Shown here in pieces: positions 38,319 through 61,185 of a DNA stretch of 64,000 nucleotides. The first letter of the stretch is position 1. Each line of letters opens with the position of its first letter. The DNA is from Candidatus Latescibacterota bacterium (GTDB taxonomy: Bacteria > Latescibacterota > UBA2968 > UBA8231). The notes beneath the pieces are model-generated. The model was not told the origin of the DNA, ran no database searches, and worked only from the letters and a program-made list of their open reading frames with translations. The stretch covers positions 64,001-128,000 of the forward strand of contig CBDCSU010000004.1 in NCBI GenBank assembly GCA_965221775.1. The letters run 5' to 3'. A program made the position numbers and the translations under genes.

Positions 38319-41300
38319 ATGTCATCCAGTTTCTCCGACACACTCCCCGGAGATTACCCCCGCCGGATCAAGAGCATCCGAGGCCTCCGGGGTCTGACGC
38401 AGACGCAGTTCGCGGAACTCGTCGGCGTCTCCTTTGCCTCCGTCAACCGCTGGGAGAACGGCCAGTCCCGTCCCAACACCCTGGCCTGGCGCCGCGTACT
38501 CGAGGTGGAAGCCCTGCCAGCAGACGGTTCGGACGAACCCTCGGCAGAGGAAACCGGGCCCCCAAGCATGGACTTCTCAGCCGATCCCGAGGCGGTCTCC
38601 GCCGTCGCCGAGGCCCATCGCCTCGCCAGCGGCCACCTCTTCAATCCCGCCTTCGCCACCGAGACCTCCCTGATCGACCCGCTTCCGCACCAGCGCATCG
38701 CCGTGTACCAGCGGATGCTTGACCAGTCCCCCCTTCGTTTTCTGCTGGCCGACGACGCCGGCGCCGGCAAGACCATCATGACCGGGCTGTACGTGCGCGA
38801 GATGCTTTCCCGCCGCCTCCTGCGGCGCGTGCTCGTCGTGCCCCCGGCCGGCTTGGTGGGCAACTGGGAGCGGGAGATGCGCACCCTCTTCCGCCTGCCC
38901 TTCCGCATCCTAGGCGGGGCCGACGCGCGCGCCGGCAACCCCTTCCTCGGACCGGAGAGCGACCTCGCCATCGTCAGCGTCGACACCCTGGCCGGGGAGC
39001 GCATGTTCGGCCACCTCGGGGATCCGCAGACCAGCCCCTACGACCTCGTTGTCTTCGACGAGGCCCACAAGCTGTCGGCAGACCGCCAGCCGGACTTCCG
39101 GGTGCGCAAGACGGGCCGCTACAAGCTGGCCGAGGCCCTGGCCGGCGCCGAGACCGACGACAAGGACGGGAGGGGGCTCTCCTGGTCGGCACAGCATCTC
39201 CTGCTGCTGACGGCCACCCCCCACATGGGCAAGGACCACCCCTACTACTATCTGTGGCGCCTGCTGCTGCCGGACGCCCTCTCCACCTACGACGCCTTCG
39301 AGGAGTTCCCCCCGGACTCGCGGCAGCGGCACTTCATCCGTCGCACCAAGGAGGAGATGGTCCACTTCGACCGTCGGCCCCTCTACCCGCAGCGCAAGTG
39401 CGACACCCTGGGCTACGAGCTGTCCCAGGGGCCGGGGAGCGAGCAGGAGCTGTACGACGAGACCACGGACTACATGCGCCATCACTACAACCGGGCGGCG
39501 GCGTTGAACCGGTCCGCCGCCCGCCTGGCGATGAGCGTCTTCCAGCGCCGCTTGGCCAGCTCCACCTATGCTCTCCTGCGCTCCTTCGAGCGCCGCCTCG
39601 AGAAGCTGGAGGGGCTCATCGACGACATCCGCAGCGGCCGCCTAACCGAGGAGCAGCTCGCGAGGCGGCAACAACAGCTCCGGCCCGACGATCTCTTCGA
39701 GACGCGCACGGCTGACGAGGAGGCGGAGATCGAAGACGGGGAACAGCACGAGGACTTCGAGGCCCGGGCCCTCGAAGGCACGGTGGCGGTCAACCTCGCC
39801 GAGCTGGAGGCGGAGCGTGTCAAGGTCGCCGGGTTGCGCGACAAGGCGCAGAGGCTCTTTGACCAAGGTGAGGAGTCGAAGTTCGAGAAGCTGAGGGAGG
39901 TCCTTGCGGCTCCGGACTACCGCGACCAGAAGCTCATCATCTTCACCGAGCACCGGGACACGGCGGGGTTCCTGGTGCGCCGACTCGAAGGCCTTGGCTA
40001 CACGGGCCACGTCGCCCTCATCCACGGCGGCCTTGCCTACCCGGAGAGGGAGCGCCAAGTCGAACTTTTCCGCCGGCCCGCGGACCAGGGCGGGGCCAGT
40101 TATCTCGTGGCCACCGACGCCGCCGGCGAGGGGATCAACCTCCAGTTCTGCTGGCTCATGGTGAACTACGACATCCCCTGGAACCCGGCCCGGCTGGAGC
40201 AGCGCATGGGGCGCATCCACCGTTACGGCCAGAAGCGGGACCCGGTGGTCATCGTCAACCTCGTCTCCGCGGGCACCCGGGAGGGCCGGGTGCTGAAGAC
40301 CCTGCTCGACAAGCTCGAGGCGATCCGACGGCAGCTCAGCTCCGACAAGGTCTTCGACGTGGTGGGCCGTCTCTTCGAGGGGCTGTCCGTCCGGGACTAC
40401 CTGGCCCAAGCGGTGATGGATGGAGCCGGCGCCGACGCCGCTGCTGAGCGGCTGGAGGGCCACCTCACGGAAGAGCAGGTCCGGGCCCTCGAGGAGAGAG
40501 AGCGCGCCATTTACGGGGACGGCGGCGAGGTGCGCGGCCGGCTGGACGATCTCAACGAGGAGATGGAGCAGGAGAACTACCGCCGGCTGCTGCCCGGGTA
40601 CGTGCGCCGTTTCGTCGAGCATGCCGCGCCGCTCCTCCACCTGCGCCTGGATGGGGATCCGGGTGGCGCCTTCTCCCTGGTGCCTGACCGGCCTCGGGCC
40701 GCCGACCCCCTGCTGTCCGCCCTGGAGGTCTACCCGGAGGAGGCGAGGGAGCGGCTGACGGTGTACAAGCCCGAGAGCCGCGACGACGCTATCTGGCTGC
40801 ATCCCGGTGAGCCGGTCTTCGACAGCCTCTCGGCCGCGGTCCGGGAGCGCCTCGGAGCCGAAGGGCTGCGCGGCGCCGTGTTCAGCGACCCCTATGCCAG
40901 CGACCCGTACCTGTTCCACATCGCCCGCGTCAGCGTGCACCAGCATACGCCGGCGGTTGACCGCGACGAGGGTGGAGAGGCGCCGCAACTGGTGGAGTCG
41001 CGGCTGGTGGGGCTGCGCCAGAGCAGAGAGGGTGCCGTGGAGGAGTGCCCCGTGGAGCACTTGCTCCTGTTGCGCGGCGCCGGCGGTATCGCCCCCGGCG
41101 GCGTGCCCCTGGCCACCTTGGCGCGGGGCATGGCCGGAGAGGCCGCCGATTTCCTTGGCGGGGAAGTGGTCGAGCAGATCGTGCAGACACACCGCCAGCG
41201 CCGCCTGGACGATCTGCCCGGCCGCCTGGAGTTCGTCAACCGCGGATTCGACTATCAGGCGGCCGAGCTGGCAGCCGCCCGGTCCCGTCTCAGGGAGAAA

Positions 41301-41939
41301 GCCGGCACCGGGGACCGTCAGTCCGCCGAGGAGTTGGCCAAGGTCAGGGAGCGGCAGCGGAGCCTCAACGCCCTGCGCGCCCACCGACTTGCCGGGCTGC
41401 GGGCCGAGCCAGAGCACATCCGGGCCGGGGAGGCCGAGTTCCTCGTGCATGCCCTGGTGGTGCCGGCCCAGGACGACAGGGAGGCGGAGCGCTACGACGC
41501 CGATGTCGAGGCCATCGCCATGGAGGTAGCCGCCGCCTACGAGAAGGAGCGGGGCGCCCAGGTGCGGGATGTCTCCAAGCCGGAGTTGGCGAGGCGGGCC
41601 GGACTGCCGGACTGGCCGGGCTTCGACCTCCTGTCCCGCGGCGAGGGAATGGAGGACCGAGCCATAGAAGTCAAGGGACGGGCCGGCACCGGCGGCGTGG
41701 AGTTGGAGGAGAACGAGTGGGCCAAGGCCTGCAACCTGAGAGAGAGATACTGGCTCTACGTGGTCTACGACTGCGCGACGGCGAGGCCGCGACTGGCGCG
41801 GGTGCGGGACCCATTCGCCAAGCTGCTGGTGAGGGAACGAGAGTCCCGTACCTTCATCATCACGGCGGGGGCGGTCATGGAGGCGTCGGAGGAGGGCAGA
41901 AAAGATGAACCGGGGTTAAAGCGGGGACAGGGTGATTGA
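38319..41939 (+). CDS. XRE-HTH + SNF2-family helicase + DUF3883 (NOV-C, PD-(D/E)XK) nuclease
   Basis: GLTQTQFAELVGVSFASVNRWENG; LLADDAGAGKT, FDEAH, LTATPH, ATDAAGEGINLQ, EQRMGRIHRYGQ; GFDLLS..AIEVKGR..NEW. Confidence 0.92.
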   Translation: MSSSFSDTLPGDYPRRIKSIRGLRGLTQTQFAELVGVSFASVNRWENGQSRPNTLAWRRVLEVEALPADGSDEPSAEETGPPSMDFSADPEAVSAVAEAHRLASGHLFNPAFATETSLIDPLPHQRIAVYQRMLDQSPLRFLLADDAGAGKTIMTGLYVREMLSRRLLRRVLVVPPAGLVGNWEREMRTLFRLPFRILGGADARAGNPFLGPESDLAIVSVDTLAGERMFGHLGDPQTSPYDLVVFDEAHKLSADRQPDFRVRKTGRYKLAEALAGAETDDKDGRGLSWSAQHLLLLTATPHMGKDHPYYYLWRLLLPDALSTYDAFEEFPPDSRQRHFIRRTKEEMVHFDRRPLYPQRKCDTLGYELSQGPGSEQELYDETTDYMRHHYNRAAALNRSAARLAMSVFQRRLASSTYALLRSFERRLEKLEGLIDDIRSGRLTEEQLARRQQQLRPDDLFETRTADEEAEIEDGEQHEDFEARALEGTVAVNLAELEAERVKVAGLRDKAQRLFDQGEESKFEKLREVLAAPDYRDQKLIIFTEHRDTAGFLVRRLEGLGYTGHVALIHGGLAYPERERQVELFRRPADQGGASYLVATDAAGEGINLQFCWLMVNYDIPWNPARLEQRMGRIHRYGQKRDPVVIVNLVSAGTREGRVLKTLLDKLEAIRRQLSSDKVFDVVGRLFEGLSVRDYLAQAVMDGAGADAAAERLEGHLTEEQVRALEERERAIYGDGGEVRGRLDDLNEEMEQENYRRLLPGYVRRFVEHAAPLLHLRLDGDPGGAFSLVPDRPRAADPLLSALEVYPEEARERLTVYKPESRDDAIWLHPGEPVFDSLSAAVRERLGAEGLRGAVFSDPYASDPYLFHIARVSVHQHTPAVDRDEGGEAPQLVESRLVGLRQSREGAVEECPVEHLLLLRGAGGIAPGGVPLATLARGMAGEAADFLGGEVVEQIVQTHRQRRLDDLPGRLEFVNRGFDYQAAELAAARSRLREKAGTGDRQSAEELAKVRERQRSLNALRAHRLAGLRAEPEHIRAGEAEFLVHALVVPAQDDREAERYDADVEAIAMEVAAAYEKERGAQVRDVSKPELARRAGLPDWPGFDLLSRGEGMEDRAIEVKGRAGTGGVELEENEWAKACNLRERYWLYVVYDCATARPRLARVRDPFAKLLVRERESRTFIITAGAVMEASEEGRKDEPGLKRGQGD

Positions 41940-43496
41940 GTGGACGAACGTACAATGAAGATTGGTATTGCAAGCCGATTCCTAAGGGACCTCCATGGCC
42001 TATCGCCTACGTTGAGGAAGAAGACCCTGGAGCTTATACACGAGCTTCAAGGGGTGGGGCAAACCGAGCTTAGGCAGAAGGCATTGCCGGGCTGGCGGCT
42101 CCACAGTCTCCGGGAGTCAAGTATGGTATCCCTCTCGGTAGATATGAACTTCCGGATCCTTGCTCAATTCACTCAGGGTGCTCTTATCCTCCATCGGGTA
42201 GTAAGACACGATGTGGCTGATCGTGCCACAGTGAACAGGAACGATCAAGCCGAAGCCATAGTCCAGATGAGCCCTGAAGAGATTCGTCCCGCGGATGTAT
42301 ATGATGCGTTGCTTTCCTTCGGTGTGCCCCGACATGAGGCTGAGTTCTTCCGCGAGTGCTCAACAGAAGATGACCTTCTGAACGTAGCAGTTAAGGTCTC
42401 AGAGGAAACGGCAAGTCTTGCCCTGACCCTGTACGAGACAAGCGGCCTCCCAATCCCTCAGGCTCGGTTCCGGATCCTCCAAAGAGATGAGGATCTCATG
42501 CGTCTTCTTGAGGCGGGAGGTACTGAGTGGAATCTATACCTACACCCGTCTCAAGCATACATTGTGGAACTAGAACCCTCCTTTCGAGCGGCCATCGTAG
42601 GTTCTGCCGGCACAGGTAAGACGGTTTGTGCGTGGCATCGCAGCAAGCATCTGATTGACTTGGGTGTATCGGTCGGTTTCGTTTGTCCGCACGAATCGGT
42701 GCTAGACATCTCGAAGCAGAATCTAATTGACATGATCGGACCGGAAGATGAACGGAGTTACTTCTTTGTCCCGAAGCAACCCGATGAGCTCCTACAGCTT
42801 GCTGATGCCGTTGACCATCTCATTATCGACGAGGCACAGGAGATTCCTCCGACATGGTTCTCCAACCTTGCAGCAAGAATGCGTGATACAGTTGGGCTGA
42901 CCGTGCTCTATGATCTGAATCAGCTCGGAGGTAATATCCGGGATGGCGACACCGCCCGATACCGGGACCGAATTGCCGGCTGGAAGTCAATGTTGAGCGG
43001 ATTCCCCAGAATGAGGAAGTTCAATCTGACGATCAATTATAGAAACGCACGAGAAATCGCCGAGTGTTATCTGGAACTGCTGTCAGAAGCACTGCCTGCA
43101 AAACCATTTGCTGACGTTCCCGTGTTCGAATCTGGAGAGGTTCTCCGGCATAGGGTCAAGAGTGGATACTTGGAAGACGAGCTTGCTAGTATTCTACGAA
43201 GGATGCTGGTGGACTATTCCTCTCACGAGATTGGGGTAGTTGTTCTCAACCGAGGACCGAGCAGCCTACTCTGCCACCTGTCCCGGCGCAAGCTTCCTGT
43301 CGTGCGGGATGCAAAGCAGGACGGAATTGTTATTACTACCGCGGCGAAGGTTCGCGGCCACGAACGAGAAGTGATGATTGTGATTGCGAAGAGCACCCAA
43401 GCTCTGTGTCGGAGTTTTGGCGCCGCAATCGATGCCTATATTGCGATGTCACGAGCGATAAAGCAGCTCATCGTAGTCGAGGAAGAGGGCAGATGA
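41940..43496 (+). CDS. RelE/HigB-like N-terminal domain fused to a compact UvrD/SF1-type helicase
   Basis: N-term RFLRDL..LH.L..SLSVDMNFRI..VVRHD; YLHPSQ, GSAGTGKT, LIIDEAQ, INYRN, KVRGHE, YIAMSRA; lower GC; alternative start ATG 41955. Confidence 0.75.
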   Translation: MDERTMKIGIASRFLRDLHGLSPTLRKKTLELIHELQGVGQTELRQKALPGWRLHSLRESSMVSLSVDMNFRILAQFTQGALILHRVVRHDVADRATVNRNDQAEAIVQMSPEEIRPADVYDALLSFGVPRHEAEFFRECSTEDDLLNVAVKVSEETASLALTLYETSGLPIPQARFRILQRDEDLMRLLEAGGTEWNLYLHPSQAYIVELEPSFRAAIVGSAGTGKTVCAWHRSKHLIDLGVSVGFVCPHESVLDISKQNLIDMIGPEDERSYFFVPKQPDELLQLADAVDHLIIDEAQEIPPTWFSNLAARMRDTVGLTVLYDLNQLGGNIRDGDTARYRDRIAGWKSMLSGFPRMRKFNLTINYRNAREIAECYLELLSEALPAKPFADVPVFESGEVLRHRVKSGYLEDELASILRRMLVDYSSHEIGVVVLNRGPSSLLCHLSRRKLPVVRDAKQDGIVITTAAKVRGHEREVMIVIAKSTQALCRSFGAAIDAYIAMSRAIKQLIVVEEEGR

Positions 43497-43900
43497 GGGA
43501 CTTCCGTCAACTGGTTGTGCAGCGTCCGCCAGACCAATCCGATATAGAGAACCTTCTGCGGAAGGGAGCACTTGGCAAGGCACTTCGACAGGCAAGAGCC
43601 ACGGGTTTGATCATTCCTCAAGAAGACATTGAGGCCACGGCAATCGAGATGTTCAATTCCAACCGTGCGGGCGAGTTATTGGCCATGGTTGGTAAAGTAG
43701 ATGTAGACCTGCCATTTGACACGAGCCAACTGCTTCTACGTGTCTTTGAAGCAGGAGACTACCATACGTTTCTGAAACAGGTGCATCGTTTGGGTGTCGG
43801 AGCGAATGAGGAGCTCAGGGTCACGGAAGCTATCGCAGTAGTTGAACGAACTGCTCCCCTGGAAGCACGGTCCTGGAGACGGAAGTTCCGTACAGTGTGA
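43493..43900 (+). CDS. Small helical hypothetical protein coupled to the RelE-helicase
   Basis: ATGA overlap with the upstream stop; same lower-GC composition; 135 aa. Confidence 0.7.
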   Translation: MRDFRQLVVQRPPDQSDIENLLRKGALGKALRQARATGLIIPQEDIEATAIEMFNSNRAGELLAMVGKVDVDLPFDTSQLLLRVFEAGDYHTFLKQVHRLGVGANEELRVTEAIAVVERTAPLEARSWRRKFRTV

Positions 43901-44025
43901 AGCATGCGGCGTTGGTGAGAGGGAGATGTCTTAGGCAATGCTGCTGTCTCTGCATCGACCACTTGGACTTAGGAATTGGATCGTAGGTCTTGATCTGAGA
44001 CTATTGGAGATCGCACGATGCTGAA

Positions 44026-44155
44026 GCGAGGCAGCGACTGGCGCGGGTGCGGGACCCCTTCGCCAAGCTGCTGATGAAGGGAACGAGAGTCCCTTACCCT
44101 CACCATCACGGCGGGGGCGGTCATGCAGGCGGCGGAGGAGGGCCCAGGGTCATGA
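44026..44155 (+). repeat. Relic duplicate of the SNF2-DUF3883 3' end (matches 41781-41897)
   Basis: GCGAGGC.GCGACTGGCGCGGGTGCGGGACCC.TTCGCCAAGCTGCTG...ATCACGGCGGGGGCGGTCATG...GGAGGAGGGC in both places, with one indel; relic stop TGA overlaps ATG 44152. Confidence 0.92.
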
Positions 44156-45759
44156 CGACGACTGGCATCCGTTTCTTCAACACCGCGGGACCGATCGTGG
44201 CGGCGGATCACTACCATGTGCCGCCGCTGGAGCGGCTGGACCGCGACGAGGTGCTGATGCTGATCCGTCAGCAGAAGTACTTCGTGCTGCACGCTCCCCG
44301 GCAGACAGGCAAGACCTCGGCCCTGCTGGCGCTGAGAGATCTGCTCAATAGCGGTGTCGCCGGCGAGTACCGCTGCGTCTACGTCAACGTCGAGGCGGGC
44401 CAAGCGGCGCGCGAGGATGTCGCAACGGCGATGCGGGCAATCCTCAGCGCCCTCGCCCGTGCGGCGCGTCAAACCCTCGATGACCAGTTCGTCGCTGACG
44501 CCTGGCCTGGCATCTTCGAGGGCTCCGGCCCCAACGATGCCCTTGGGGAAACCCTGTCCCGCTGGGCCGAGTCGGACCCCCAGCCGCTGGTGCTGCTGAT
44601 CGACGAGATCGACGCCCTGATCGGCGACAGCCTGCTGGCGGTGCTGCGGCAGTTGCGCGCCGGGTATGCAGACCGCCCACGGCGGTTTCCGCAGAGCGTG
44701 GTCCTTGGCGGGGTGCGGGACGTGCGCGACTACCGCATCCGCTCTTCCGCCGAGAACGCCGTCATCGCCGGGGGCAGCGCCTTCAACATCCGGGCCGAGT
44801 CCCTGCGCCTGGGGGGCTTCTCCCGCGAGGAGGTGGAGTCGCTGCTGGGGCAGCATACCGAGGAGACCGGGCAGGCCTTCACGGAGGAGGCGCGCGCGGC
44901 GGTCTGGGAACTGACCGAGGGCCAGCCGTGGCTGGTGAACGCCCTGGCCTACGAAGCCTGCTTCCGCAACAAGGCCGGCCGCGACCGGGGCCAGGAGGTG
45001 ACCGCCGAGGCCATCCAGGATGCGCGCGAGCAGTTGATCCTGCGCCGGGAAACGCACCTGGACCAGCTCACCGACAAGCTCCGGGAGGAGCGGGTGCGCC
45101 GGGTGATCGAGCCGCTGCTGAGAGGCGCCGACGACGCCGGTCCCATCGCTGCCGACGACTTGGAATACGTACGCGACCTCGGCCTGGTTGCCCGCGACAG
45201 CCCGGTCCGCATCGCCAACCCGATCTACCGCGAGGTGATCCCCCGCGATCTGACGTTCACGACCCAGGCGGGTTTCCATCACGACCCGTCCTGGTACGTG
45301 GACGAGGGCGGGGCCCTGGAGGTGGACAAGCTGCTGGCCGCGTTCCAGGAGTTCTTCCGGGAGCACTCCGAGCACTGGGTGGAGCGCTTCCAGTACAAGG
45401 AGGCGGGTCCGCAGTTGCTGCTTCAGGCCTTCCTTCAGCGCATCCTCAACAGCGGCGGCCGCATCGAGCGCGAGTACGGCCTGGGGCGCCTGCGCACCGA
45501 TCTGCTGCTGGTGTGGCCGCTGCCGGGAGATGCGGGCGGGGTGCAGAAGGCGGTCGTCGAGTGCAAGGTGCTGCACCGGGGCCTGGAGCGGACCCTGCGC
45601 GAAGGGCTGGAGCAGACACGGGCCTACATGGACCGCTGCGGGTCGGCGGAGGGGCACCTGGTGATCTTCGACCGCACCGAGGGCAAGTCGTGGGAGGAGA
45701 AGGTGTACCGCCGCGACGAGACCGGGGGCGGCGCCCCGGTCACAGCGTGGGGGATGTGA
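44152..45759 (+). CDS. AAA-like (STAND/AAA_35-type) ATPase with C-terminal PD-(D/E)XK nuclease domain
   Basis: FFNTAGP, HAPRQTGKTS, LLIDEID, GGSAFNI, REYGLGRLRTDL..VVECK. Confidence 0.85.
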   Translation: MTTTGIRFFNTAGPIVAADHYHVPPLERLDRDEVLMLIRQQKYFVLHAPRQTGKTSALLALRDLLNSGVAGEYRCVYVNVEAGQAAREDVATAMRAILSALARAARQTLDDQFVADAWPGIFEGSGPNDALGETLSRWAESDPQPLVLLIDEIDALIGDSLLAVLRQLRAGYADRPRRFPQSVVLGGVRDVRDYRIRSSAENAVIAGGSAFNIRAESLRLGGFSREEVESLLGQHTEETGQAFTEEARAAVWELTEGQPWLVNALAYEACFRNKAGRDRGQEVTAEAIQDAREQLILRRETHLDQLTDKLREERVRRVIEPLLRGADDAGPIAADDLEYVRDLGLVARDSPVRIANPIYREVIPRDLTFTTQAGFHHDPSWYVDEGGALEVDKLLAAFQEFFREHSEHWVERFQYKEAGPQLLLQAFLQRILNSGGRIEREYGLGRLRTDLLLVWPLPGDAGGVQKAVVECKVLHRGLERTLREGLEQTRAYMDRCGSAEGHLVIFDRTEGKSWEEKVYRRDETGGGAPVTAWGM

Positions 45760-48836: not shown

Positions 48837-49068
48837 CAAGGAGGAGTTCGCCCGGCGTGGTCAGGCGATCTACGAGCAGCGAGTGAGGCCGCAGGTGGAA
48901 GAAGGCAACAGCGGTCGCGTCGTGGCGATTGACATTGAGACCGGCGAGTTCGAGGTGGGGGACGATCCCTTGGCCGCCTCCGACCAACTGTTCGCGCGCT
49001 GTCCAGATGCGCAGCCGTGGCTGATCCGGATCGGCCACCGTGCGCTACACCGGCTCGGCGCATCATGA
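48814..49068 (+). CDS. Small DUF5678-like protein, typically paired with a clan AA aspartic protease
   Basis: MERQPRHSKEEFARRGQAIYE..GRVVAIDIETGEFEV..RIG pattern. Confidence 0.7.
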   Translation: MERQPRHSKEEFARRGQAIYEQRVRPQVEEGNSGRVVAIDIETGEFEVGDDPLAASDQLFARCPDAQPWLIRIGHRALHRLGAS

Positions 49069-49109
49069 TCGAGGGTGCAGTTTCAGAAAGGAAACGATGG
49101 CTATGCTAA
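49065..49109 (+). pseudogene. Probable 5' stub (MIEGAV) of a clan AA aspartic protease gene, cut by CBASS insertion
   Basis: ATGA overlap with the DUF5678-like stop; MI.G.V start; composition shifts after about 7 codons. Confidence 0.45.
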
Positions 49110-53600: not shown

Positions 53601-53947
53601 AGGGCCGCAACCTCGGCCTGGAAGGGCAGGGAGGAAGGCCTGCGCCGCTCATCGACCAGGTGCACAAGCTCATGCACCTCTGGCGCGCCGGGGACCAGGT
53701 CAAGGTCAACGACTACCTCGACAGCCGCGGCCTGCCCCGAAATGCCCTGTTCAACCAGATCCTCCAGGCCCTCATCGAGCTGGCCGACGAAGGCTCGGAG
53801 GAGCGGGCACTGCTGGAATCGGTGAGCAACCACGCGGCCGGGCGGGGCGGGGTTCAAGCGCCGCGGCAGAGGCGGTTTCAGTTCGGAGAAGCCGGTCGTC
53901 GACCGGAGCCTGCCCAAGATGAGGCTCGACCTCGATATGCGAGGTGA
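50690..53947 (+). CDS. DUF1156-domain adenine-specific DNA methyltransferase with Zn ribbon
   Basis: LHIWPARRPLAACRA (DUF1156), VLDPFAGGG (motif I), CKQC..CPCC, TDPPYYD (motif IV). Confidence 0.92.
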   Translation: MTDKRLIEAAFPLKQVSLDSVHEKNVRHGHISTLHIWPARRPLAACRAALIATLLPDPGNARERKEILERMAGRLIRRPERKRVNGRVVERVKEETRGGILHWGRESGQDLEWFRAEIRKAYGGKAPKVLDPFAGGGAIPLEAMRLGCEVTAMDINPVAWFILKCTLEYPQKLAGQTRPLPGFALQDREFMEAFLKSKGFRGARLRSLLDRIGHGDGGGVQLDALPGDVPVTEADLAWHVRAWGRWVLSRARRELASCYPSYAGFEPLKPGRDFEARPIRLLDVDEDGAPQVEPFNAGFDKDYLKDPLNPRWIAKPAVAYLWARTVTCKQCRAELPLLKTRWLCKKDRKRVLLTMEPKADGTGVVFGVLGDVAQNGGNGAQRREHDRRLGGGTMSRTGAACPCCGAITTMEDIRLEGRAGRLGAVMTAVVVDGLKGKEYRLPTDHERAMAEVTEDRLQALYAEIPFGLPEEQTPKAGIGASRAFSVDGYGFDTWRKLFTNRQLLALGEFVRTLRTLMQELDDCSEGWREAVIANLGLVNDRLADYSSAVCSWHNSGEKLRNTFGRFALPIVWDFTEVNPLSETSGNYRGALDWVSKACEHLQRSVDGARSGESIRGSAIVCPIDSFDVILTDPPYYDAIPYSDLMDFFHVWLRRTVPGLSAEVESAFSGPLGPKWDHESGDGELIDDAGRFGGDKECSKQSYEDGMARSFRSCHAALQPDGRLVVVFANKHPDAWETLVAALIRAGFVVDGSWPIQTEMGTRTRAMASAALSSSVWIVCKKRSATGSGWDTRVLEEMRVNITQQLRDFWDAGIRGPDFVWAATGPALEAFSKYPVVKKANAPGEQMSVAEFLRQVRRMVVDFVVGRVLIQDGAAEQAEEREAETGLDDVTTYYLLHRHDFGLDEAPVGGCILYALSCNLSDSALVNQHDLLAQAGRRAAGEEAEEEGDEPEEPEEKGGGAKVKLKPWHRRKGRNLGLEGQGGRPAPLIDQVHKLMHLWRAGDQVKVNDYLDSRGLPRNALFNQILQALIELADEGSEERALLESVSNHAAGRGGVQAPRQRRFQFGEAGRRPEPAQDEARPRYAR

Positions 53948-53965: not shown

Positions 53966-55951
53966 ATGAGCGCGATTCTTCAGATCAACCTGGACGATCT
54001 CCTCCATTGCCGCGGCGTAGAGTCGGAACGGGTCGAGTTCAAGGAGTCCTGGGATTCGCACAGGACCGCCCCCCAAGTGCTGCAGACGATCTGCGCCTTC
54101 GCGAACGACTATCACAATCTGAACGGCGGATACGTCGTCATCGGCGTCGGTGAGCGGGACGGAAGTGCAGTGCTGCCGCCATCCGGATTGTCCGCAGCGG
54201 AGATCGAGGCCGCGCAGCGGTGGATTCGCGGCCACTGCCAACAACTCGACCCGACCTATCAGCCCATCCTCTCTCCCGAGACGGTCGAGGAGCGGCTTGT
54301 CCTGGTGGTGTGGGCACCGGGAAGCGAGATGAGACCTCATCGCGCGCCCTCCTCCAGAGGCGAGTCACCCCGGTACTGGGTTCGTCTCGGTTCAGAGACC
54401 GTTGATGCCGAACAACGCGGCGACCTGCTCCGGGGACTTATTCAGCAGACGGCCCGGGTGCCTTGGGACGATCGCCGGACGCCGGATGCTCAGGTCGATG
54501 ATCTGCGAGAGGCCAAGGTCCGCGAGTATCTGCGCGACGTGGGGAGTGGGCTCCTCAACGAGCCGAATGAGAGGGAAGTCTATCGCCGCATGCGGATCAC
54601 GATGAAGGTCAATGACCACGAGGCGCCCCGGAACGCAGGTCTTCTTTTCTTTTCTAGAGAGCCCGTAGAGTGGTTCCGAGGTGCCAGGATCGAAGTTGTG
54701 CACTTCACCGCGGATCGGGCTGGTGACGTTCAGGAGGAACGCACTTTCGGGGGAGGGCTCGCGGACCAGCTGCGGGACTGCCTGAACTATCTTCAGAATC
54801 TCTCGACCTTCCATGTGCAGAAGCAGGGAGATCGCAGCCAGGTGCGCGGCTGGGTCAGCTATCCGCTGCCGGCGTTGCGCGAGACCCTCGTCAACGCGAT
54901 CTATCACCGTGGTTACGATGTGGATCAGCCCGAGCCCACCAAGGTCTATCTCTATCCGAGCCGGGTCGAGGTGATCAGCTACCCCGGTCCTGTGCCGGGA
55001 ATCGAGCCTCGCCACTTGGTCCCGGACGCGGAGGTTCGGGCCGCGCCCGCTCGCAATCGCCGCATCGGCGAGTTCCTGAAAGAGCTGGGACTCGCGGAAG
55101 GACGCCTCACCGGGCTGCCAAGAGTGTTTCGGGCGATGAAGGACAACGGATCGCCGGTACCGCGCTTCGACTTTGACGAGCAGCGGACCTGGTTTCAAGC
55201 CACTCTGCCCGCTCACCCGGAGTACGCGGCGCTGTCCGCGTTGCGGGACACGGCTCACCTGCGGGCACTGGGAGAGCACGAGGAGGCCCTTCGCCGTATC
55301 GAATCAGCGTGGGCGTCGAACCCCGAGTCGGCGATCCTTGCCGCGGAGATGATTCGTTCGTACGCGGCACAGGGTGAGACCGGACGTGCCGAAGAGGTCT
55401 TGGAAGCGTTCGAGGCGAAGGGACCGCCGAGCGCTGCCGCCCACGTGGCCAATACGTTGATAGAGGCGCTGATGGAAGCCGGAGAGAGTGAGAAGGCGCG
55501 GCGCCTGCTCAAAGAAAACCGGGCGGAACTGTTCGGGCAGGACGCCATCGACGCGGCCATCCTCGCCAGGCGCGCGAAGAACTCCCAAGTCGCGCACCGG
55601 TACTTCGAGCGCGCCGCAGACGCCGTGTATGCCGACCCACGCGCGCTTCTCGAGTTTGCTCAGACCAAGATCTGGTTGGCGGGCGAGGCCCGCAGGCGGC
55701 GGCAACCGGACTCGCGGCGCCGGTTCCTCACGGAGGCCCGCGCGCTTCTGGAGCGTGTGCTTCAGCTGGAGGCCTCGCCGACCCGCCACGCCTGGGCATG
55801 GCGGGAGCTGGCGCGCACGCTCAACTGGCTGGGGGCTCCAGTTCGAGAAATCGAGGAGGCTTGGCAAAAGGCGATCGATCGGATGCCCGAAGAGAGTAGA
55901 TTCGTCGGAGAGAGGGACAATATGCGGGCGTCCAGGCGGCAGGAAACCTGA
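53966..55951 (+). CDS. Schlafen/AlbA_2 + HATPase_c_4 + TPR-like helical C-terminus
   Basis: ESERVEFK..ICAFAN..GGYVVIGV; YP..ALRETLVNAIYHRGY, RNRRIGEFLKELGLAEGRLTG; Ala/Glu/Arg-rich helical repeats. Confidence 0.85.
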   Translation: MSAILQINLDDLLHCRGVESERVEFKESWDSHRTAPQVLQTICAFANDYHNLNGGYVVIGVGERDGSAVLPPSGLSAAEIEAAQRWIRGHCQQLDPTYQPILSPETVEERLVLVVWAPGSEMRPHRAPSSRGESPRYWVRLGSETVDAEQRGDLLRGLIQQTARVPWDDRRTPDAQVDDLREAKVREYLRDVGSGLLNEPNEREVYRRMRITMKVNDHEAPRNAGLLFFSREPVEWFRGARIEVVHFTADRAGDVQEERTFGGGLADQLRDCLNYLQNLSTFHVQKQGDRSQVRGWVSYPLPALRETLVNAIYHRGYDVDQPEPTKVYLYPSRVEVISYPGPVPGIEPRHLVPDAEVRAAPARNRRIGEFLKELGLAEGRLTGLPRVFRAMKDNGSPVPRFDFDEQRTWFQATLPAHPEYAALSALRDTAHLRALGEHEEALRRIESAWASNPESAILAAEMIRSYAAQGETGRAEEVLEAFEAKGPPSAAAHVANTLIEALMEAGESEKARRLLKENRAELFGQDAIDAAILARRAKNSQVAHRYFERAADAVYADPRALLEFAQTKIWLAGEARRRRQPDSRRRFLTEARALLERVLQLEASPTRHAWAWRELARTLNWLGAPVREIEEAWQKAIDRMPEESRFVGERDNMRASRRQET

Positions 55952-55987
55952 TCACATGAGGGAGCGGACTCCTTCCACGAGGACGAC

Positions 55988-58900
55988 ATGACAACCAGGA
56001 CATCCCGGAAACCCTGGCACGAGGTCGTGCAACTGCGCGACGATCTGAAGACGGGAGAGCTGTCCCTCGCGGTCTTCGCCGCCGACCTCTACGACGTGGT
56101 GATGCAGAAGGGCCAGCGGCCGGTGTACGAGCAGCCCGCCGAGTTCTTCGCCCTCACCTTTCCCACCCTGAACCTGCGGGAGTTGGTCAAGGATGTCTGC
56201 CACCGGCTCGCCGGCCGCAGCGACAAGGCGTACCGGAAGCTCTCCGTCAACTACGGCGGCGGCAAGACCCACACGCTCATCGCCCTCAGGCACCTGGTCC
56301 ACGACCCGGCGGCGCTTCCCCCCCTGCCGGCGGTGCAGGAGTTCGAGGCCCACATCGGCTTCAGGCCTCCACAGTCCCGGGTGGCCGCCCTCTGTTTCGA
56401 CAAGATCGACCTGGACAAGGGCGTCGAGACTCCGGGGCCGGACGGCGAGATCAGGATGCTCAGGCACCCGTGGAGCATCCTCGCCTTTCAGTTGGCGGGC
56501 CCCGATGGCCTGCGGCTCATCCACGCCGAGGGCGAGGACACGGAGCGCGATACTCCGCCGGCGGAGCCGCTGGTGGTGGAGCTGCTGTCCCGGCCGCAGA
56601 GGGACGGTCTCTCGACGCTGGTGTTGCTCGACGAGGTGCTGATGTATCTGCGGGTCCTGGCTGAGACCTCCTCCGAGTCACGTGGCCGTCTGTTGAGCTT
56701 CTTCCAGTACCTCACGCAGGCTGTGGTCAAGGTGGACCGCTGCGCCATGGTGGCCTCACTCCTCGCCTCCGACCCGAGAAGGCACGACGACCTCGGCAAC
56801 GAACTGCTGCGCGACGTCTCCGAGATCATCGTTCGGCAGGGGGAGGAGGGTGCCTACCCGGTGGGCAAGGAAGACGTGGCCGAGGTCCTGCGGCGCCGCT
56901 TCTTCACGCCCGAGTCGATTCGCGACCAGAACGCCTTCCGTCCTCACGTGACTTCCGCCGTGGGCAGCATCGCCGGTCTCGATGAGCAGACCGGAAGAGA
57001 GCGTGCCAGCGCCGAGGAGCGCTACCTCAACAGCTACCCCTTCCACCCGGATCTCACCGAGATCTTCTACAACCGCTGGACCCAGCTCGACGGCTTCCAG
57101 CGCACCCGCGGCATCCTCCGCACCTTCGCCATCGCCCTGCGCGACGCCTCCGAGTGGGACACCAGCCCGCTGGTGGGGCCGGGCGTCTTTCTGCGCGCCC
57201 CTGGGAAGGATGGCTTGGCCGAAGCGGCGGGCGACCTCGCTTCCTCTGCCAGCGTCGATTCCGATACCGGTCAGCCCCAGCAGTGGCGGCCGATCCTCGA
57301 AGGCGAGCTGGAGAAGGCGCGCACCATTCAGGACGAGTCGGCCGGCCTGGCACACCGGGAGGTGGAGCAAGCCGTGGTCTCCGTCTTCCTGTCCTCGCAG
57401 CCTATCGGCCACAAGGCGCAGTCCGGGGAGCTCATGGTCCTGCTCGGAGCGGGCCACCCGGACAGGATCGAGCTGGAGAAGGCCCTGCGGCGTTGGACGG
57501 AACAGTCCTGGTTCCTGGACGAGGCGGAGATCGCCACGGGCCAAACCGGCCAGGAGGGGGAACTGCCCAGGGCCTGGCGACTGGGCAACCGCCCCAACCT
57601 GCGCCAGATGCACCACGATGCCTGCAGCAACCGGGTGCCCCCATCACTGGTGGAGTCGCAGATCATCGACGCCATCGACAAGGAGAGGGCCCTCACTTCG
57701 GGCGCCTCCGCGGCCGGCGCCAAGGTGCACAACCTGCCGGAGAGACCGAGCGACATCGGTGATGACGGTGACTTCCACTACGCGGTCCTCGGGCCGCAGG
57801 CCGCCTCCGAGTCCGGCAAGCCGAGCACCCTGTCCAGGCGTTTCCTCGACGAGACCACTTCCAGGGACCGGCCCCGGGTCTACCGCAACGCAGTCGTACT
57901 CGCCGTGCCTTCCCGCGATGGTCTCGACGCGCTGCGCACCCGTGTCCGGGAGTACCTCGGCTGGGTGGAAGTTGGCGACCAGCTCAGTGGTCAGCCCATC
58001 GATCCGCTCCGGGAGCAGATGCTCGCAAGCGAGAGGGATTCGGCGAGGAAGCGAATTCCAGACGCTGTGCGGCAGGCGTACTCCGTCGTCGTCACCGTTG
58101 ACGAGAGCGACGCCGTTCACGCCTTCAAGGTCGTCGTCACCGGGGACCCTCTGTTCACGATCATCAAGGCGGACCAACGGGCCCGCATCCAGGAAACGGC
58201 TGTCAGCTCGGAGGCCATGTTGCCGGAGGGGCCCTACGACCTGTGGCGCGAGGGGGAGGACTCCCGCCGCGTAAAGGACTTGGTGGGCGCCTTCGCGCAG
58301 TTCCCCAAGCTGCCCAAGATGTTGCGGCCCAAAGAGGTTCTGGACACGGTGGTGGACGGGGTCCGGCAAGGGACCTGGGTGGCGCGGCTGGTGCGACCGG
58401 ACCGCACCGTCAGGACCTTCTGGCGCACGGAGGTCGACGAGGCGGCCCTGCAGGACCCGGCCCTGGAGGTGCTGCTGCCGCAGGCCGCCGAGTTGAGCGA
58501 CCTCGCCCCGGACCTGCTGGCGCACGAGAAGCTCCCGGGGCTCTGGTCGGGGGATGAGATCAGTGTGCAGGAGGTCTTCGACTACTTCGCCGGCGGACAC
58601 ACCGTGAGCTTGCCGCGGGAGGGGTACGACGAGATTCTGGTCATCCCGAAATGCGAGCCGGCTCATCTGGAATCGGCCATCTCGCAGGCCGTCGAGCAGG
58701 GGCAGGTGTGGTTGACGAGCGGGCCCGCCTCGATCCTCGACGAACCGGTGCCGGCGGGAGTCCTGAGCGCTGCCGCGAAGCTCAGGCCGCGGCCGGGACA
58801 GATCGAGGTTCCCGAGTTGATGGCCGTGTCGATCCCCGACGCCTGGAAGGATGGCAAGACCAACGCCCTTGCCCTTGCGACCGGCCTCTCCACGAAGCGA

Positions 58901-59305
58901 GGCGTCAGTCTTCCTTGGACCACGGTGCGATCGGCCATCGGGTCGGCCATCCGGGCGCGGTGGATCGAGTTGACAAAGGACAGCCCCGAATGGCCGTGCG
59001 ACTTTGCTGGCGCCCAGCACGTGATCTTTCAGGTCCCTGTCGACGAGGCTCGCGAGAAGGAGAAACCCCTCTACGGGTCGGGGAGCGGGTCCGGGTCTTC
59101 GCCATGTGCCGAGGCGGTTCTTGAGGCCGACCAGATCCAGGACTTGGCCGAACAAGTGCCGGAGCTGCTAAAGGCGGCCGTTGGAAGTGAGCTCAGGTTT
59201 ACGGTCCGCATTGAGGTGGGAGGAGCGGCCGCCCCCAGCCCGGAGGCGGTGCAGAAGATCAAAGATCTGCTTGCCGTGGTGTCGGAGAACCTGCGGCTTG
59301 ACTAG
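55988..59305 (+). CDS. DUF499 family AAA+ ATPase
   Basis: KPWHEVVQLRDD..FAADL, EFFALTFPT, NYGGGKTHTLIAL, LLDEV, YPFHP, FQRTRGILR. Confidence 0.92.
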   Translation: MTTRTSRKPWHEVVQLRDDLKTGELSLAVFAADLYDVVMQKGQRPVYEQPAEFFALTFPTLNLRELVKDVCHRLAGRSDKAYRKLSVNYGGGKTHTLIALRHLVHDPAALPPLPAVQEFEAHIGFRPPQSRVAALCFDKIDLDKGVETPGPDGEIRMLRHPWSILAFQLAGPDGLRLIHAEGEDTERDTPPAEPLVVELLSRPQRDGLSTLVLLDEVLMYLRVLAETSSESRGRLLSFFQYLTQAVVKVDRCAMVASLLASDPRRHDDLGNELLRDVSEIIVRQGEEGAYPVGKEDVAEVLRRRFFTPESIRDQNAFRPHVTSAVGSIAGLDEQTGRERASAEERYLNSYPFHPDLTEIFYNRWTQLDGFQRTRGILRTFAIALRDASEWDTSPLVGPGVFLRAPGKDGLAEAAGDLASSASVDSDTGQPQQWRPILEGELEKARTIQDESAGLAHREVEQAVVSVFLSSQPIGHKAQSGELMVLLGAGHPDRIELEKALRRWTEQSWFLDEAEIATGQTGQEGELPRAWRLGNRPNLRQMHHDACSNRVPPSLVESQIIDAIDKERALTSGASAAGAKVHNLPERPSDIGDDGDFHYAVLGPQAASESGKPSTLSRRFLDETTSRDRPRVYRNAVVLAVPSRDGLDALRTRVREYLGWVEVGDQLSGQPIDPLREQMLASERDSARKRIPDAVRQAYSVVVTVDESDAVHAFKVVVTGDPLFTIIKADQRARIQETAVSSEAMLPEGPYDLWREGEDSRRVKDLVGAFAQFPKLPKMLRPKEVLDTVVDGVRQGTWVARLVRPDRTVRTFWRTEVDEAALQDPALEVLLPQAAELSDLAPDLLAHEKLPGLWSGDEISVQEVFDYFAGGHTVSLPREGYDEILVIPKCEPAHLESAISQAVEQGQVWLTSGPASILDEPVPAGVLSAAAKLRPRPGQIEVPELMAVSIPDAWKDGKTNALALATGLSTKRGVSLPWTTVRSAIGSAIRARWIELTKDSPEWPCDFAGAQHVIFQVPVDEAREKEKPLYGSGSGSGSSPCAEAVLEADQIQDLAEQVPELLKAAVGSELRFTVRIEVGGAAAPSPEAVQKIKDLLAVVSENLRLD

Positions 59306-59400
59306 GAAGTTGGCCGAACCTGCGCCGTCTCCCGACCCGGAATCCCTTGTCCAGAAACGGGAGAACCCCGTAATTCTTCCCAATAGAGCACCTCGAAGAG

Positions 59401-59429
59401 CTGACGCGAGCCCATTTGTGGCCTATGCT
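59401..59429 (+). promoter_or_regulatory. Putative promoter of the terminal three-gene cassette
   Basis: CTGACG(59401)-N17-TATGCT(59424), 30 bp upstream of ATG 59460. Confidence 0.45.
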
Positions 59430-59459
59430 AACCTATCTTAGGGACTGCAAATCTCCACG

Positions 59460-59975
59460 ATGCTGGACTTGAATAGTCTTGGCAACGGCCTCCCGGCTAT
59501 CACACCAAGCTTCGGCATGGCCCTAGCGGAGGCCGGAAGCGTATGCCTGGAATCACAGAACCACGGGCAAGGTGTCCAACTTCGCGTCAGAGGATACAGT
59601 AACAGATGCTATCCTTTGACCTGGCCTCGAACTACTGAGCAGACCCGCAGATGCTGGAATGACCATGAGGATGCAACTGAACACGGCGCGATGGGTATCG
59701 CGGTTTTGCTGGCGCAGAAGGAGATCGGTTACACAGTGATTGAGCGTTCGCGGAAAGGTACTGGCTTTGACTACTGGATGGGGGACGTATCAGCTTTTCC
59801 TTTCCAAAGCAAGGCAAGGTTAGAAGTATCGGGAATCCGAGAAGGTAACGATCAGGAAGTGAGGGCAAGAGTACAGCAGAAGCTGAGACAGACAGACCGA
59901 TCTGACGGTGCCCTACCAGCTTTCGTAATCGTAGTCGAGTTCGGACAACCCCTTGCTGAGGTGCAAGAAAAATGA
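59460..59975 (+). CDS. Hypothetical protein, restriction-endonuclease-like (PD-(D/E)XK variant)
   Basis: ATEHGA..ERSRKGTGFDYW..ARLEVSG..QKLRQT pattern. Confidence 0.7.
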   Translation: MLDLNSLGNGLPAITPSFGMALAEAGSVCLESQNHGQGVQLRVRGYSNRCYPLTWPRTTEQTRRCWNDHEDATEHGAMGIAVLLAQKEIGYTVIERSRKGTGFDYWMGDVSAFPFQSKARLEVSGIREGNDQEVRARVQQKLRQTDRSDGALPAFVIVVEFGQPLAEVQEK

Positions 59976-60403
59976 GCGTAAACGACTCTCACAGTAAGGC
60001 CATGGACTTCGCCGAACGTGCCTTTGTTGCGCGCATACATGGTAAGCGAGAACAGGCTCACCAGTTGTCTGTTCAAGCATTGAAGTACGAACTTGCGGCG
60101 ATCGCCAAATTGGAAGCAGAGGGACGAATCGAACCAACCTACTCGGTACTGCACCGCAGTGCTGCGACGCTTGCATTGGACTGCAACCAGCCAGAAAAAG
60201 CTAAGGAAATCGCGACCCGAGCTCTCAACCAAGATCCACATCCGGAGATCGCCGTAGAGCTACATGAGCTTCTACTTCGTCTATCCTTGCCCTTGCTCTC
60301 ATCGCCGCAATTAAAGAGAAGATCTTGGGAACGAGGGATTCTCGCTATAGAAACAGACTCAGCACCGGACGAGGTGAAACTGACTTGTAGGATGGTAGCC
60401 TAA
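59972..60403 (+). CDS. Hypothetical helical/TPR-like protein
   Basis: HSKAMDFAE..EPTYSVLHRSAATLALDC..HPEIA.EL; ATGA overlap. Confidence 0.7.
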   Translation: MSVNDSHSKAMDFAERAFVARIHGKREQAHQLSVQALKYELAAIAKLEAEGRIEPTYSVLHRSAATLALDCNQPEKAKEIATRALNQDPHPEIAVELHELLLRLSLPLLSSPQLKRRSWERGILAIETDSAPDEVKLTCRMVA

Positions 60404-61185
60404 TGTATCTCACCGCACAGCGGGTTGTACGAATAAAGGATGAGACAACCGAGGTGGGCATCAATGTCTTCTTGTATCAACACCGCGAGTACAACCTCCC
60501 GCCAAATGTGCAACTTCCTACCGAAGGGATCATTGACTGGATCATCGATGAATCTCCGGGAACACTCATTGCAGAATCTGTGGACTTGGTTCCGATTGGC
60601 AATCAAGTCCTCAGCTTTGTCGATATTGTTGGAAGGGAAACTATTGGAAAGGAGTTTATCCAGAACTTTCTCGATCAGGTAGAAGGCGATATTGCAGAGA
60701 GACATGCACCCGTTGCAAGAATCACTCCAGCACGCGATTTCGCCGTTAGATTCAAGTTCATTGATGAATTGCAGGGGAATGAGGTGAGAGAGTATAAGGC
60801 CCTTATGGAGCGAGCCATGGATCTGTTCGAGTCTCGTAGCCCTCCCAAGTGGCGTTCTGAAGAGCCTTGGATAGAGATCATCCGTACTATTACTGATGAG
60901 AAGTCAGTCTTCAGGGTATCACCGGCAACTGCGAGGAAACTCCAACAGATTCATGGCAAAACCTGGTCTGTGAAGAGAATCTCAGTAGATCATCAGACAG
61001 AGAACCTTGTTAAGGCCATGTATGGCGATCTGATACGGCACATTGTCCCAACTTTGACCAACTTAACTCTCGAACAGATTGAGGCACAAGGCGGATTGAT
61101 TCTCTGCGACTCGTCGGACAATAGAAAGATCAAGTGGCCCCGGACCAAGGGAACTATAGGCCAAGCGGCCTCACGCATCCCATGA
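60403..61185 (+). CDS. Hypothetical protein (260 aa)
   Basis: TAATG overlap with the upstream stop; long ORF in low-GC DNA; no family recognised. Confidence 0.7.
   Translation: MYLTAQRVVRIKDETTEVGINVFLYQHREYNLPPNVQLPTEGIIDWIIDESPGTLIAESVDLVPIGNQVLSFVDIVGRETIGKEFIQNFLDQVEGDIAERHAPVARITPARDFAVRFKFIDELQGNEVREYKALMERAMDLFESRSPPKWRSEEPWIEIIRTITDEKSVFRVSPATARKLQQIHGKTWSVKRISVDHQTENLVKAMYGDLIRHIVPTLTNLTLEQIEAQGGLILCDSSDNRKIKWPRTKGTIGQAASRIP

Follow-up and report, generated by a model that had tools for sequence, protein, structure and literature searches.

The DNA examined here, which we call the window, is a 64,000-nucleotide (nt) stretch of a Candidatus Latescibacterota genome (contig CBDCSU010000004.1, positions 64,001 to 128,000 of the forward strand), and all coordinates count from its first letter. 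Between 38319 and 61185 lies one unbroken chain of 17 open reading frames (ORFs), all on the plus strand. The chain holds three large core genes, hmaA, hmaB, and hmaC, and 13 cargo ORFs: nine between hmaA and hmaB (the A-B position), one between hmaB and hmaC (the B-C position), and three past hmaC. It is bounded by an ankyrin-repeat gene (36267-38234) and by a convergent ABC-permease gene on the minus strand (61257-62114). With considerable confidence we read this locus as an Hma system, that is, a Type-1 DUF499-centered system related to bacteriophage exclusion (BREX), whose slots are filled by independent defense cassettes. It is a restriction-modification-like antiphage system of a known kind, in an unusually crowded copy.

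The genes are tightly packed. Fourteen of the 16 ORF junctions fall within -23 to +36 nt, and six of these are overlaps (ATGA, GTGA, or 1 nt). The two wide junctions measure 251 nt (43901-44151, where a remnant of hmaA is found) and 154 nt (59306-59459). From the spacing alone, this suggests that the cargo may be co-transcribed with the cores. The base composition is mixed: in a window of about 68% GC, the cores have a GC of 0.67-0.69 and a host-like GC at third codon positions (GC3) of 0.85-0.88, three cargo blocks have 0.48-0.53, and four further cargo genes have 0.59-0.65. The low GC of the three blocks points to a foreign origin. Rfam, run over 38000-61500 at E ≤ 0.1, returned zero matches. 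The original prediction, made by a model from the sequence alone, had described three large genes of host-like GC split by about nine, one, and three genes, on one strand and with many genes coupled. All its coordinates were borne out, as were the common strand (17 of 17) and the coupling (the six start/stop overlaps).

The core genes and the identity of the system

hmaA (38319-41939) encodes a protein of 1206 amino acids (aa) with an XRE-type helix-turn-helix (HTH), an SNF2 helicase, and a C-terminal NOV_C (DUF3883)/PD-(D/E)xK nuclease. The PADLOC profile for HmaA matches with 1.2e-163 and covers residues 84-1150 of the 1206, and Pfam reports HTH_3, SNF2-rel_dom, Helicase_C, and NOV_C (54.3 bits vs. 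a cut-off of 22.1). The motifs GAGKT148, DEAH247, and FDLLS1102...IEVKG1116 can be recognized, with the D...EVK nuclease motif at 1103-1119. hmaB (50690-53947, 1085 aa) encodes a DUF1156 N6-adenine methyltransferase (PADLOC profile 5.8e-119; Pfam DUF1156 67.8 bits vs. a cut-off of 24) in which DPPY632 is invariant across 12 homologs; its true start is at 50690 rather than at 50612. hmaC (55988-59305, 1105 aa) encodes a DUF499 STAND/ORC-like AAA+ ATPase (PADLOC profile 5.1e-70; Pfam DUF499 63.7 bits vs. a cut-off of 23) with a Walker A motif GGGKT90 and LLDE213. The order A-B-C on one strand recurs in related loci wherever both neighboring cores were found, and the arrangement is not random.

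The catalog name proposed in the original prediction was Gao_RL, which we take to be the system elsewhere called Type-2 BREX-related (BR); the survey of Type-1 and Type-2 BR does not itself use the term Gao_RL. Under that name, the locus would be a Gao_RL system whose DUF3780 gene has been lost or is hidden. A DUF1156 methylase, a DUF499 ATPase, an SF2 helicase effector, and a restriction-like logic are shared with it, and the Type-2 BR profiles of PADLOC do match weakly (DUF1156_MTase 3.4e-35, DUF499 3.1e-13, and PLD_Helicase 3.7e-25, the last in the helicase part only). But the Hma models score far higher, and the NCBIfam equivalogs of the DUF3780/PLD-helicase system stay far below their cut-offs: DUF499_antiphage reaches 74.7 vs. 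1200 bits, DUF1156_antiphage 162.9 vs. 1000, and phospholipD_antiphage 143.7 vs. 1100, the last again in the helicase part only. By Pfam, the helicase of the locus has no PLD domain, its C-terminus being NOV_C/PD-(D/E)xK instead of PLD/HKD. The prediction had seen no DUF3780 gene, and Pfam agrees, with no DUF3780 match for any of the 17 ORFs, while the fold-level search covered t171 and t260 (described below) against the PDB.

The definition of Hma goes back to Payne et al. 2021 (PMC8565338), and a 2026 survey separates Type-1 from Type-2 BR by just these features (PMC12839542). As given there, Type-1 BR, which is Hma, combines the helicase with a PD-(D/E)xK nuclease and has no DUF3780, and in Type-2 BR the helicase is of the HKD kind and 98% of taxa carry DUF3780 as a standalone protein. 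A locus of Type-1 BR/Hma, the sister type without DUF3780, is expected to lack it, as this one does. We give a Gao_RL locus with a lost or hidden DUF3780 next to no probability, and consider a Gao_RL/Type-2 BR identity to be ruled out by the domain tests (no PLD, no DUF3780, and NCBIfam scores under the cut-offs). The SNF2 core is also homologous to those of Type 3 BREX and of the defense system DISARM (BrxHII, DrmD; PADLOC DrmD 1.1e-96, BrxH 3.7e-90), but the PglZ, BrxC, and DrmA/B/C partners are not at this locus, and the NCBIfam DrmD model reaches only 327.9 vs. 610 bits.

With published Hma loci, this one shares the three proteins, their order and strand, and the presence of co-oriented defense genes between the cores. 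It differs in carrying nine A-B genes vs. a published census maximum of three, in the three additional genes that abut the end of hmaC, in the XRE-type HTH ahead of the helicase, and in an HmaC that seems to be without an N-terminal HEPN domain, to judge from a PADLOC alignment that begins at residue 7.

Variable cargo positions in related loci

An alignment of HmaB gave 576 relatives, one genome per species, from which the best 80 loci were kept (labeled L001 and so on) and cut 10 kb from hmaB. The sources of these 80 loci (HmaB identity 53-81%) include Latescibacterota, Dehalococcoidia, Poribacteria, Spirochaetia, Binatia, and cyanobacterial plasmids. HmaB conservation is strong, with more than 120 clusters at ≥ 74% identity and 74-89% in the best 120, and such conservation across many phyla implies frequent transfer of the whole locus between phyla.

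The most informative relative is L001, which lies on a Latescibacterota chromosome recovered as a metagenome-assembled genome. It has both flanking genes in common with our locus (86% and 95% nt identity), and its cores are 83-87% identical in nt, but the cargo differs at A-B, at B-C, and past hmaC. At A-B, L001 has a HEC-01A-like gene and a 193-aa DUF4276-like partner where our locus has nine ORFs; at B-C it has 5.6 kb with six ORFs vs. a single Schlafen-type gene here; and after hmaC about 100 nt vs. 1.9 kb with three ORFs. The turnover of cassettes is much faster than the divergence of the cores. The original prediction had named invariably shared intervening genes in relatives as the observation that would speak against variable slots. 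Since the cargo of L001 is different at all three positions, the variable-slot proposal stands. Most of the ankyrin gene beside hmaA (36360-38006) is also without a counterpart in L001, and that gene is therefore variable as well.

The same variability extends to the rest of the sample. The A-B gap, measured in 76 loci (in L006, L007, and L078 up to a remnant of hmaB), ranges from 17 to 7,722 nt with a median of 1,914, and is at most 250 nt in 8 loci; at 8,750 nt, the gap of our locus is longer than all 76, a comparison limited by the 10-kb cut and by those three loci. The B-C gap (59 loci) ranges from -6 to 6,753 nt. Clustering of 303 cargo proteins (291 crude ORFs from the related loci plus 12 from here) results in 191 clusters, 153 of them singletons, a number that may be inflated by the crude greedy method used to call ORFs in the related loci. 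Among 129 cluster representatives scanned with PADLOC, a scan that left out singletons under 120 aa, 42 match at E ≤ 1e-12. The matches include short and long pAgo, types I and II of the cyclic-oligonucleotide-based antiphage signaling system (CBASS), Gabija, Dsr2, Nsn, PD-T4-6, AbiU, type II and IIG restriction-modification, HEC-01B, HEC-09, and several PDCs. The position past hmaC also acts as a cargo slot: of the 42 loci in which the sequence continues for 3 kb or more past hmaC, 27 have same-strand ORFs directly after it, and a PADLOC match is present in 12 of the 42 loci (14 of 51 ORFs). Thus the earlier proposal that the inter-core positions are variable slots agrees with what the related loci contain, differing genes and much known defense. 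We also observe a 1,219-aa protein in the A-B slot of two Latescibacterota loci (L007, 6318-9977; L008, 6312-9971), which has no PADLOC match at E ≤ 1e-12.

That genes between the cores are defense candidates, as the prediction inferred, is not new: it is already the thesis of Payne 2024 (bioRxiv 10.1101/2024.01.29.577857), and the same point is made in Liu et al. 2024 (PMC11232893). In Payne 2024, 931 of the 1,485 Hma loci contain embedded genes, 96.7% of these genes are co-oriented, and Hma-embedded genes are the source from which the candidate families HEC and PDC were built ("guilt-by-embedding"). Liu 2024 reports insertions in 66.5% of hma loci, calls the region an insertion hotspot, and finds integrases near 19.1% of hmaA genes. 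As the collection of defense genes in Hma slots is in print and has been used for system discovery, finding it here opens no new question. The census of Payne 2024, according to its methods, caps the number of genes embedded between hma genes at three, which is a search setting and not a biological criterion. Here nine ORFs separate hmaA from hmaB. Such a rule would exclude this locus with its 13 cargo ORFs, and censuses probably undercount loci of this kind.

Cargo and neighboring genes

The cargo consists of a type I CBASS, a PDC-M07 pair, a Schlafen-type protein, a decayed HEC-01, and four modules that we call uncatalogued, by which we mean that they have no match in the PADLOC models. The original prediction had held the unannotated cargo to be candidates for undescribed systems. 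That part may still hold for the four uncatalogued modules (c1a with c1b; c2; t171 with t143; and t260), our candidates for new systems; PDC-M07, HEC-01A, and the Schlafen-type gene turn out to be catalogued. Even c1, c2, t171/t143, or t260 may already be present, unnamed, among the embedded families of Payne 2024 (Tables S1-S8). Nor is all of the cargo intact: HEC-01A is truncated and partnerless, and 44026-44143 is a gene remnant.

The CBASS was recognized as such from the start, and both PADLOC and Pfam agree. Its first gene (49097-50029, GC 0.52) encodes the CD-NTase, the cyclic-oligonucleotide synthase (PDLC00801, 1.4e-112). Nucleotidyltransferases of this kind carry a GS...DxD motif, and HGSY73 and DSDVDV85 are present here (in the numbering of the ORF that starts at 49040). 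The second gene (50026-50682) encodes the effector Cap15, with two transmembrane (TM) segments and a cyclic-nucleotide receptor barrel (Pfam Cap15_CD_rec 1.1e-13, 52 bits vs. a cut-off of 31.2; PADLOC 2TM effector 3.2e-54). Its GTG start overlaps the stop of the cyclase gene (GTGA), with an alternative start at 49999. No E1-E2, JAB, or HORMA match was found among the CBASS neighbors with the PADLOC profiles, and the arrangement, a CD-NTase followed by a 2-TM Cap15 and without Cap2/Cap3 or HORMA genes, is that of type I CBASS. What differs is the placement of this copy immediately upstream of hmaB. The pair is 64% identical to a pair at the same position in L020.

PDC-M07 is a candidate two-gene system and is complete here, with both genes adjacent: PDC-M07A (45772-47058), an ABC-type ATPase (PDLC04392 3.1e-100; Pfam AAA_21 3e-26), and PDC-M07B (47058-47552, 164 aa; PDLC04396 1.5e-34), with a 1-nt overlap between them. 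The single B-C gene (53966-55951, 661 aa) encodes a Schlafen/AlbA_2 and HATPase_c_4 protein with Pfam matches that all exceed the cut-off (SLFN_AlbA_2 53.2 bits, HATPase_c_4 37.8, TPR_19 35.1). Relatives of about 400 aa are found in 8 other Hma loci, and the survey of BREX and BR describes this architecture as a widespread auxiliary effector and lists Schlafen-type proteins in at least 1,017 taxa (PMC12839542). Bacterial Schlafen-type effectors have a Schlafen/AlbA_2 domain, then a minimal histidine-kinase-type ATPase and a wHTH; the protein here is a putative one, with an additional C-terminal TPR/PPR-like tail.

The HEC-01A-like ABC ATPase gene (47577-48836; PADLOC HEC-01A 4.1e-55) is 83% identical to the gene in L001, but the homology ends at 48746 and the conserved C-terminal ~36 aa are gone. 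The DUF4276/TOPRIM-like partner (193 aa in L001 and L006) is missing. In the HEC-01A-like gene of L004 (6688-7914), the homology breaks off at the same codon (after ...T.IDP), which suggests either a breakpoint that recurs or a truncated allele common to both. With the end of HEC-01A overlaps, by 23 nt, a small familyless ORF, p84 (48814-49068, 84 aa; no Pfam or PADLOC match). Its product is 89-93% identical in aa to three copies (two in L008, 5913-6158 and 17779-18024, and one in L003, 6408-6653), 75% identical to that of L005 (2801-3040), and 44% to that of L012. The core proteins of L003 and L008 reach only 74-79% identity with those of our locus, less than p84 does. Often p84 opens a cargo block, and in some cases a retropepsin-like gene accompanies it.

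The four uncatalogued modules are of different kinds. c1a (41955-43496, 513 aa, GC 0.53, no PADLOC match) is a minimal ATPase resembling SF1 helicases, and its N-terminus is weakly ParE-like. In Pfam, AAA_19, AAA_22, and SLFN-g3_helicase are all under the cut-off and ParE_like has merely E 0.46; the Walker A motif is at 221 and DEAQ at 295 (in the numbering of the 518-aa ORF). It has at least 637 homologs of about 512-517 aa, one of them with PF24732, named only "AAA family ATPase" or hypothetical. A tblastn search against phages and a PDB sequence search gave no match, and tblastn against plasmids gave one partial match (37% coverage) in an unannotated record. The ATG of the familyless c1b (43493-43900, 135 aa; no Pfam match at E ≤ 1, no PADLOC match) overlaps the stop of c1a (ATGA). 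c2 (44152-45759, 535 aa), with a host-like GC of 0.69, is an ATPase of AAA/STAND-like type that carries a nuclease-like D...ExK motif at its C-terminal end (Pfam AAA_22 35.1 bits vs. a cut-off of 27, AAA_35 under the cut-off; motifs at 49, 149, 449, and 469). It has no match in PADLOC or in a PDB sequence search. A homolog 79% identical sits past hmaC in L007, and stand-alone homologs named "ATP-binding protein" occur in 14 plasmid records, 8 of them from Pseudanabaena; in this family, several plasmids of single Pseudanabaena strains carry one copy each.

Past hmaC, t171 (59460-59975, 171 aa, GC 0.53) probably encodes a divergent PD-(D/E)xK-fold nuclease. Its AlphaFold2 (AF2) model has a predicted local distance difference test (pLDDT) score of 96.3, the best PDB fold matches are weak (E 3.4e-3), and many of those listed are PD-(D/E)xK-type nucleases. 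D104 and E122 are invariant, and 1,727 representatives are found at E ≤ 1e-3. There is no Pfam match, and an Atlas search returned only unnamed clusters plus a 0.78 lead to Hjc. It is followed, with an ATGA overlap, by t143 (59972-60403, 143 aa), which is helical (weak TPR, E 0.015). The pair is also found on Anabaena and Leptolyngbya plasmids (t143 39-43% identical, t171 53% and 36.5%). A prediction of the t171 and t143 complex scored 0.01, which gives no verdict, and we use it neither way. The last ORF, t260 (60403-61185, 260 aa, GC 0.48), is of no known family or fold. Its homologs form 103 clusters including its own, none named beyond "hypothetical" and none with a Pfam domain. Its AF2 model (pLDDT 81.3, predicted template modeling score 0.72) found no match in a PDB fold search (best E 7e-3, TM-score 0.14), the Atlas search had no usable match, and tblastn against plasmids had none. 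In longest-contig size, 8 of the 102 non-self t260 clusters equal one of the best 120 HmaB clusters, two of these contigs being under 70 kb, which may point to a link between t260 and this Hma clade.

Upstream of the chain, a PDC-S01-like ATPase gene (33986-35137, plus strand; AAA_14 and DUF4143; single-gene PADLOC candidate PDC-S01, 1.4e-53) lies 3 kb from hmaA, with a lactonase gene and an ankyrin gene in between. Farther away are an nSTAND1/AAA_16 NTPase gene (30745-31872, plus strand) with a weak PADLOC match to PDC-S27 (2.6e-10), and a gene for a ParE-family toxin on the minus strand (17635-18039; Pfam 1.6e-11), with a possible small partner ORF just upstream (17937-18251). The window has four ankyrin-repeat genes in all (11282-17605, 20536-23160, 23157-24260, and 36267-38234), one of which encodes 2,107 aa.

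Duplicated core-gene ends and a proposed mode of cargo capture

The 3′ end of hmaA is present twice. Copy 1 (41781-41897, plus strand), inside hmaA, corresponds to the final 117 nt of the ancestral reading frame of hmaA. Copy 2 (44026-44143, plus strand), the hmaA 3′ remnant, has 118 nt and is frameshifted by a 1-nt insertion. The two copies, 92% identical apart from that single 1-nt indel, stand on either side of the low-GC c1 cassette. The repeat ends precisely at the hmaA stop of L001 and L007. Were the extra base removed, the frame of the remnant would close with a TGA overlapping the c2 start codon (ATG) at 44152, and so the remnant looks like an old end of hmaA that was once coupled to c2. 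Both copies are about equally distant from the hmaA of relatives, which leaves undecided which of them is the incomer.

We searched the related loci for similar scars, using tblastn to find extra partial copies of core genes. Core-end duplicates flank cassettes in 5 of 81 loci, ours and four others, with lengths of 79-171 nt and identities of 82-92%. Three are duplicates of the hmaB 5′ end: in L006 (82%), a HEC-01A-like gene and its partner stand between the copies, in L007 (89%), a HEC-01A-like gene alone, and in L078 (87%), two ORFs. The fourth, in L042, duplicates the hmaC 5′ end (91%) around one ORF. Because the copies differ by 8-18%, they probably come from different alleles.

How could such an arrangement arise? 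Within an Hma system, in the view of the literature, HmaB would mark self DNA at adenines, HmaC would scan or sense, and HmaA would translocate and nick or cut foreign DNA with its C-terminal PD-(D/E)xK nuclease. On our reading, the junctions A-B, B-C, and after hmaC have collected independent defense cassettes in the same orientation, close enough to the cores for read-through. For the collection itself, we infer that a donor Hma locus would recombine with the resident one by one homologous crossover in a core gene plus one illegitimate join, an event that would sometimes leave behind a partial duplicate of the end of a core gene. This model resembles homology-facilitated illegitimate recombination. 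Anchored capture would explain both why cargo sits flush with the core ends and why we see duplicates of the hmaA 3′, hmaB 5′, and hmaC 5′ ends, and the strong conservation of HmaB would make it a good anchor for recombination. Our tentative proposal, possible but not one that we would press, is that the hma cores act as homology anchors, an integrase-free, operon-embedded platform for cassettes, and that at least one of the uncatalogued modules is a new antiphage system.

Core-end duplicates and homology-anchored capture are apparently new, in that we did not find them described in Payne 2024 or Liu 2024. In a text search, Payne 2024 makes no mention of recombination, truncation, or remnants and uses duplication, pseudogene, and repeat only in other senses, and Liu 2024 makes no mention of duplicates, homologous recombination, direct repeats, or remnants. 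There are well-known parallels. In P2/P4 hotspots, as for PrrC in EcoprrI and BrxU in BREX, conserved genes enclose or flank the defense genes and travel with them, and the cargo is exchanged among otherwise similar loci. Here, on the other hand, the conserved flanks are the three defense genes themselves, there is no visible integrase or att site, and the partial core-end duplicates point to capture anchored in homology.

The PrrC parallel leads to another way of looking at the cargo, as auxiliary or backup effectors that are integrated with Hma and fired when restriction fails. The common strand and the tight or overlapping junctions are what one would expect of such effectors, the survey proposes "auxiliary and backup effectors" at BREX and BR loci (PMC12839542), and Payne 2024 discusses the PrrC precedent. 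We consider it unlikely all the same. The CBASS and the ABC-ATPase pairs are self-contained and occur mostly outside Hma (Septu, e.g., is only 0.7% embedded according to Payne 2024), the cargo is wholly different between syntenic relatives, and both c2 and t171/t143 are found on plasmids without Hma. The opposite idea, that the slots are a genomic sink (also raised in Payne 2024) in which most cargo is neutral or decaying, a set of functionless hitch-hikers, strikes us as a little less likely still. The hmaA remnant, the truncated and partnerless HEC-01A with L004 ending at the same point, and a p84 without its usual neighbor are all in its favor, and yet the remaining cargo ORFs are intact and keep both their catalytic motifs and their start/stop overlaps, and two low-GC pairs retain their partners elsewhere (the CBASS in L020, t171/t143 on cyanobacterial plasmids).

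The patchy low-GC segments, together with the integrases that Liu 2024 reports near some hmaA genes (the 19.1% quoted above), could also indicate that the 23-kb block as a whole was integrated recently as a mobile island, as opposed to a resident Hma locus that gained cargo in place. This seems very improbable. There is no tRNA in the window, a scan of 26 flanking ORFs showed no integrase, the GC3 of the cores is host-like, and in L001 the same flanking genes enclose the same cores. On the missing tRNA and flank integrase and on the synteny with L001, we rejected the mobile island.

The reading that we prefer, an Hma locus whose slots hold independent cassettes captured by homology, also has evidence that weighs against it. 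On the side of the Hma system, Liu 2024 reports in its favor that Halomonas HmaA alone defends against T4, with both the helicase and the PD-(D/E)xK nickase domains needed, but also that HmaB has no effect on T4 infectivity. Because of that last result, the modification step of Hma is unproven. Pattern scans of the locus for promoters and terminators gave the same as shuffled controls, and hence a single operon is not demonstrated. Scars are found in only 5 of 81 loci and are compatible with more than one recombination route, and the number of cargo singletons may be inflated by the crude ORF calls described above. On the side of the cargo, PDC-M07 is a candidate defense system only. HEC-01 is by definition a pair of an ABC ATPase (A) and a TOPRIM-type protein (B), of which our locus has the A half, and HEC-01 gave no protection in the tests of Payne 2024. 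In three of the five other p84 copies (L003, L005, and L012), p84 precedes a retropepsin-like (DTG) gene that is missing here. With HEC-01A truncated and partnerless and p84 without its protease-like neighbor, part of the cargo may be dead. None of c1a, c1b, t171, t143, and t260 is present in any of the 80 related loci, so that for c1, t171/t143, and t260, it is only the embedding that argues for a role in defense, and the two plasmid contexts of c2 that we viewed show no defense neighbors. Finally, the analysis is wholly computational, and the activity of each cassette is to be read as predicted.

For the Hma family, the comparison with L001 provides a clean natural experiment, in which cores that are 83-87% identical carry different cargo at three positions. 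The scars give a testable mechanism for embedding, a question left open in Payne 2024 and Liu 2024 as far as their texts on embedding go. And the locus supplies a short list of intact uncatalogued modules, among which new antiphage systems may be sought.

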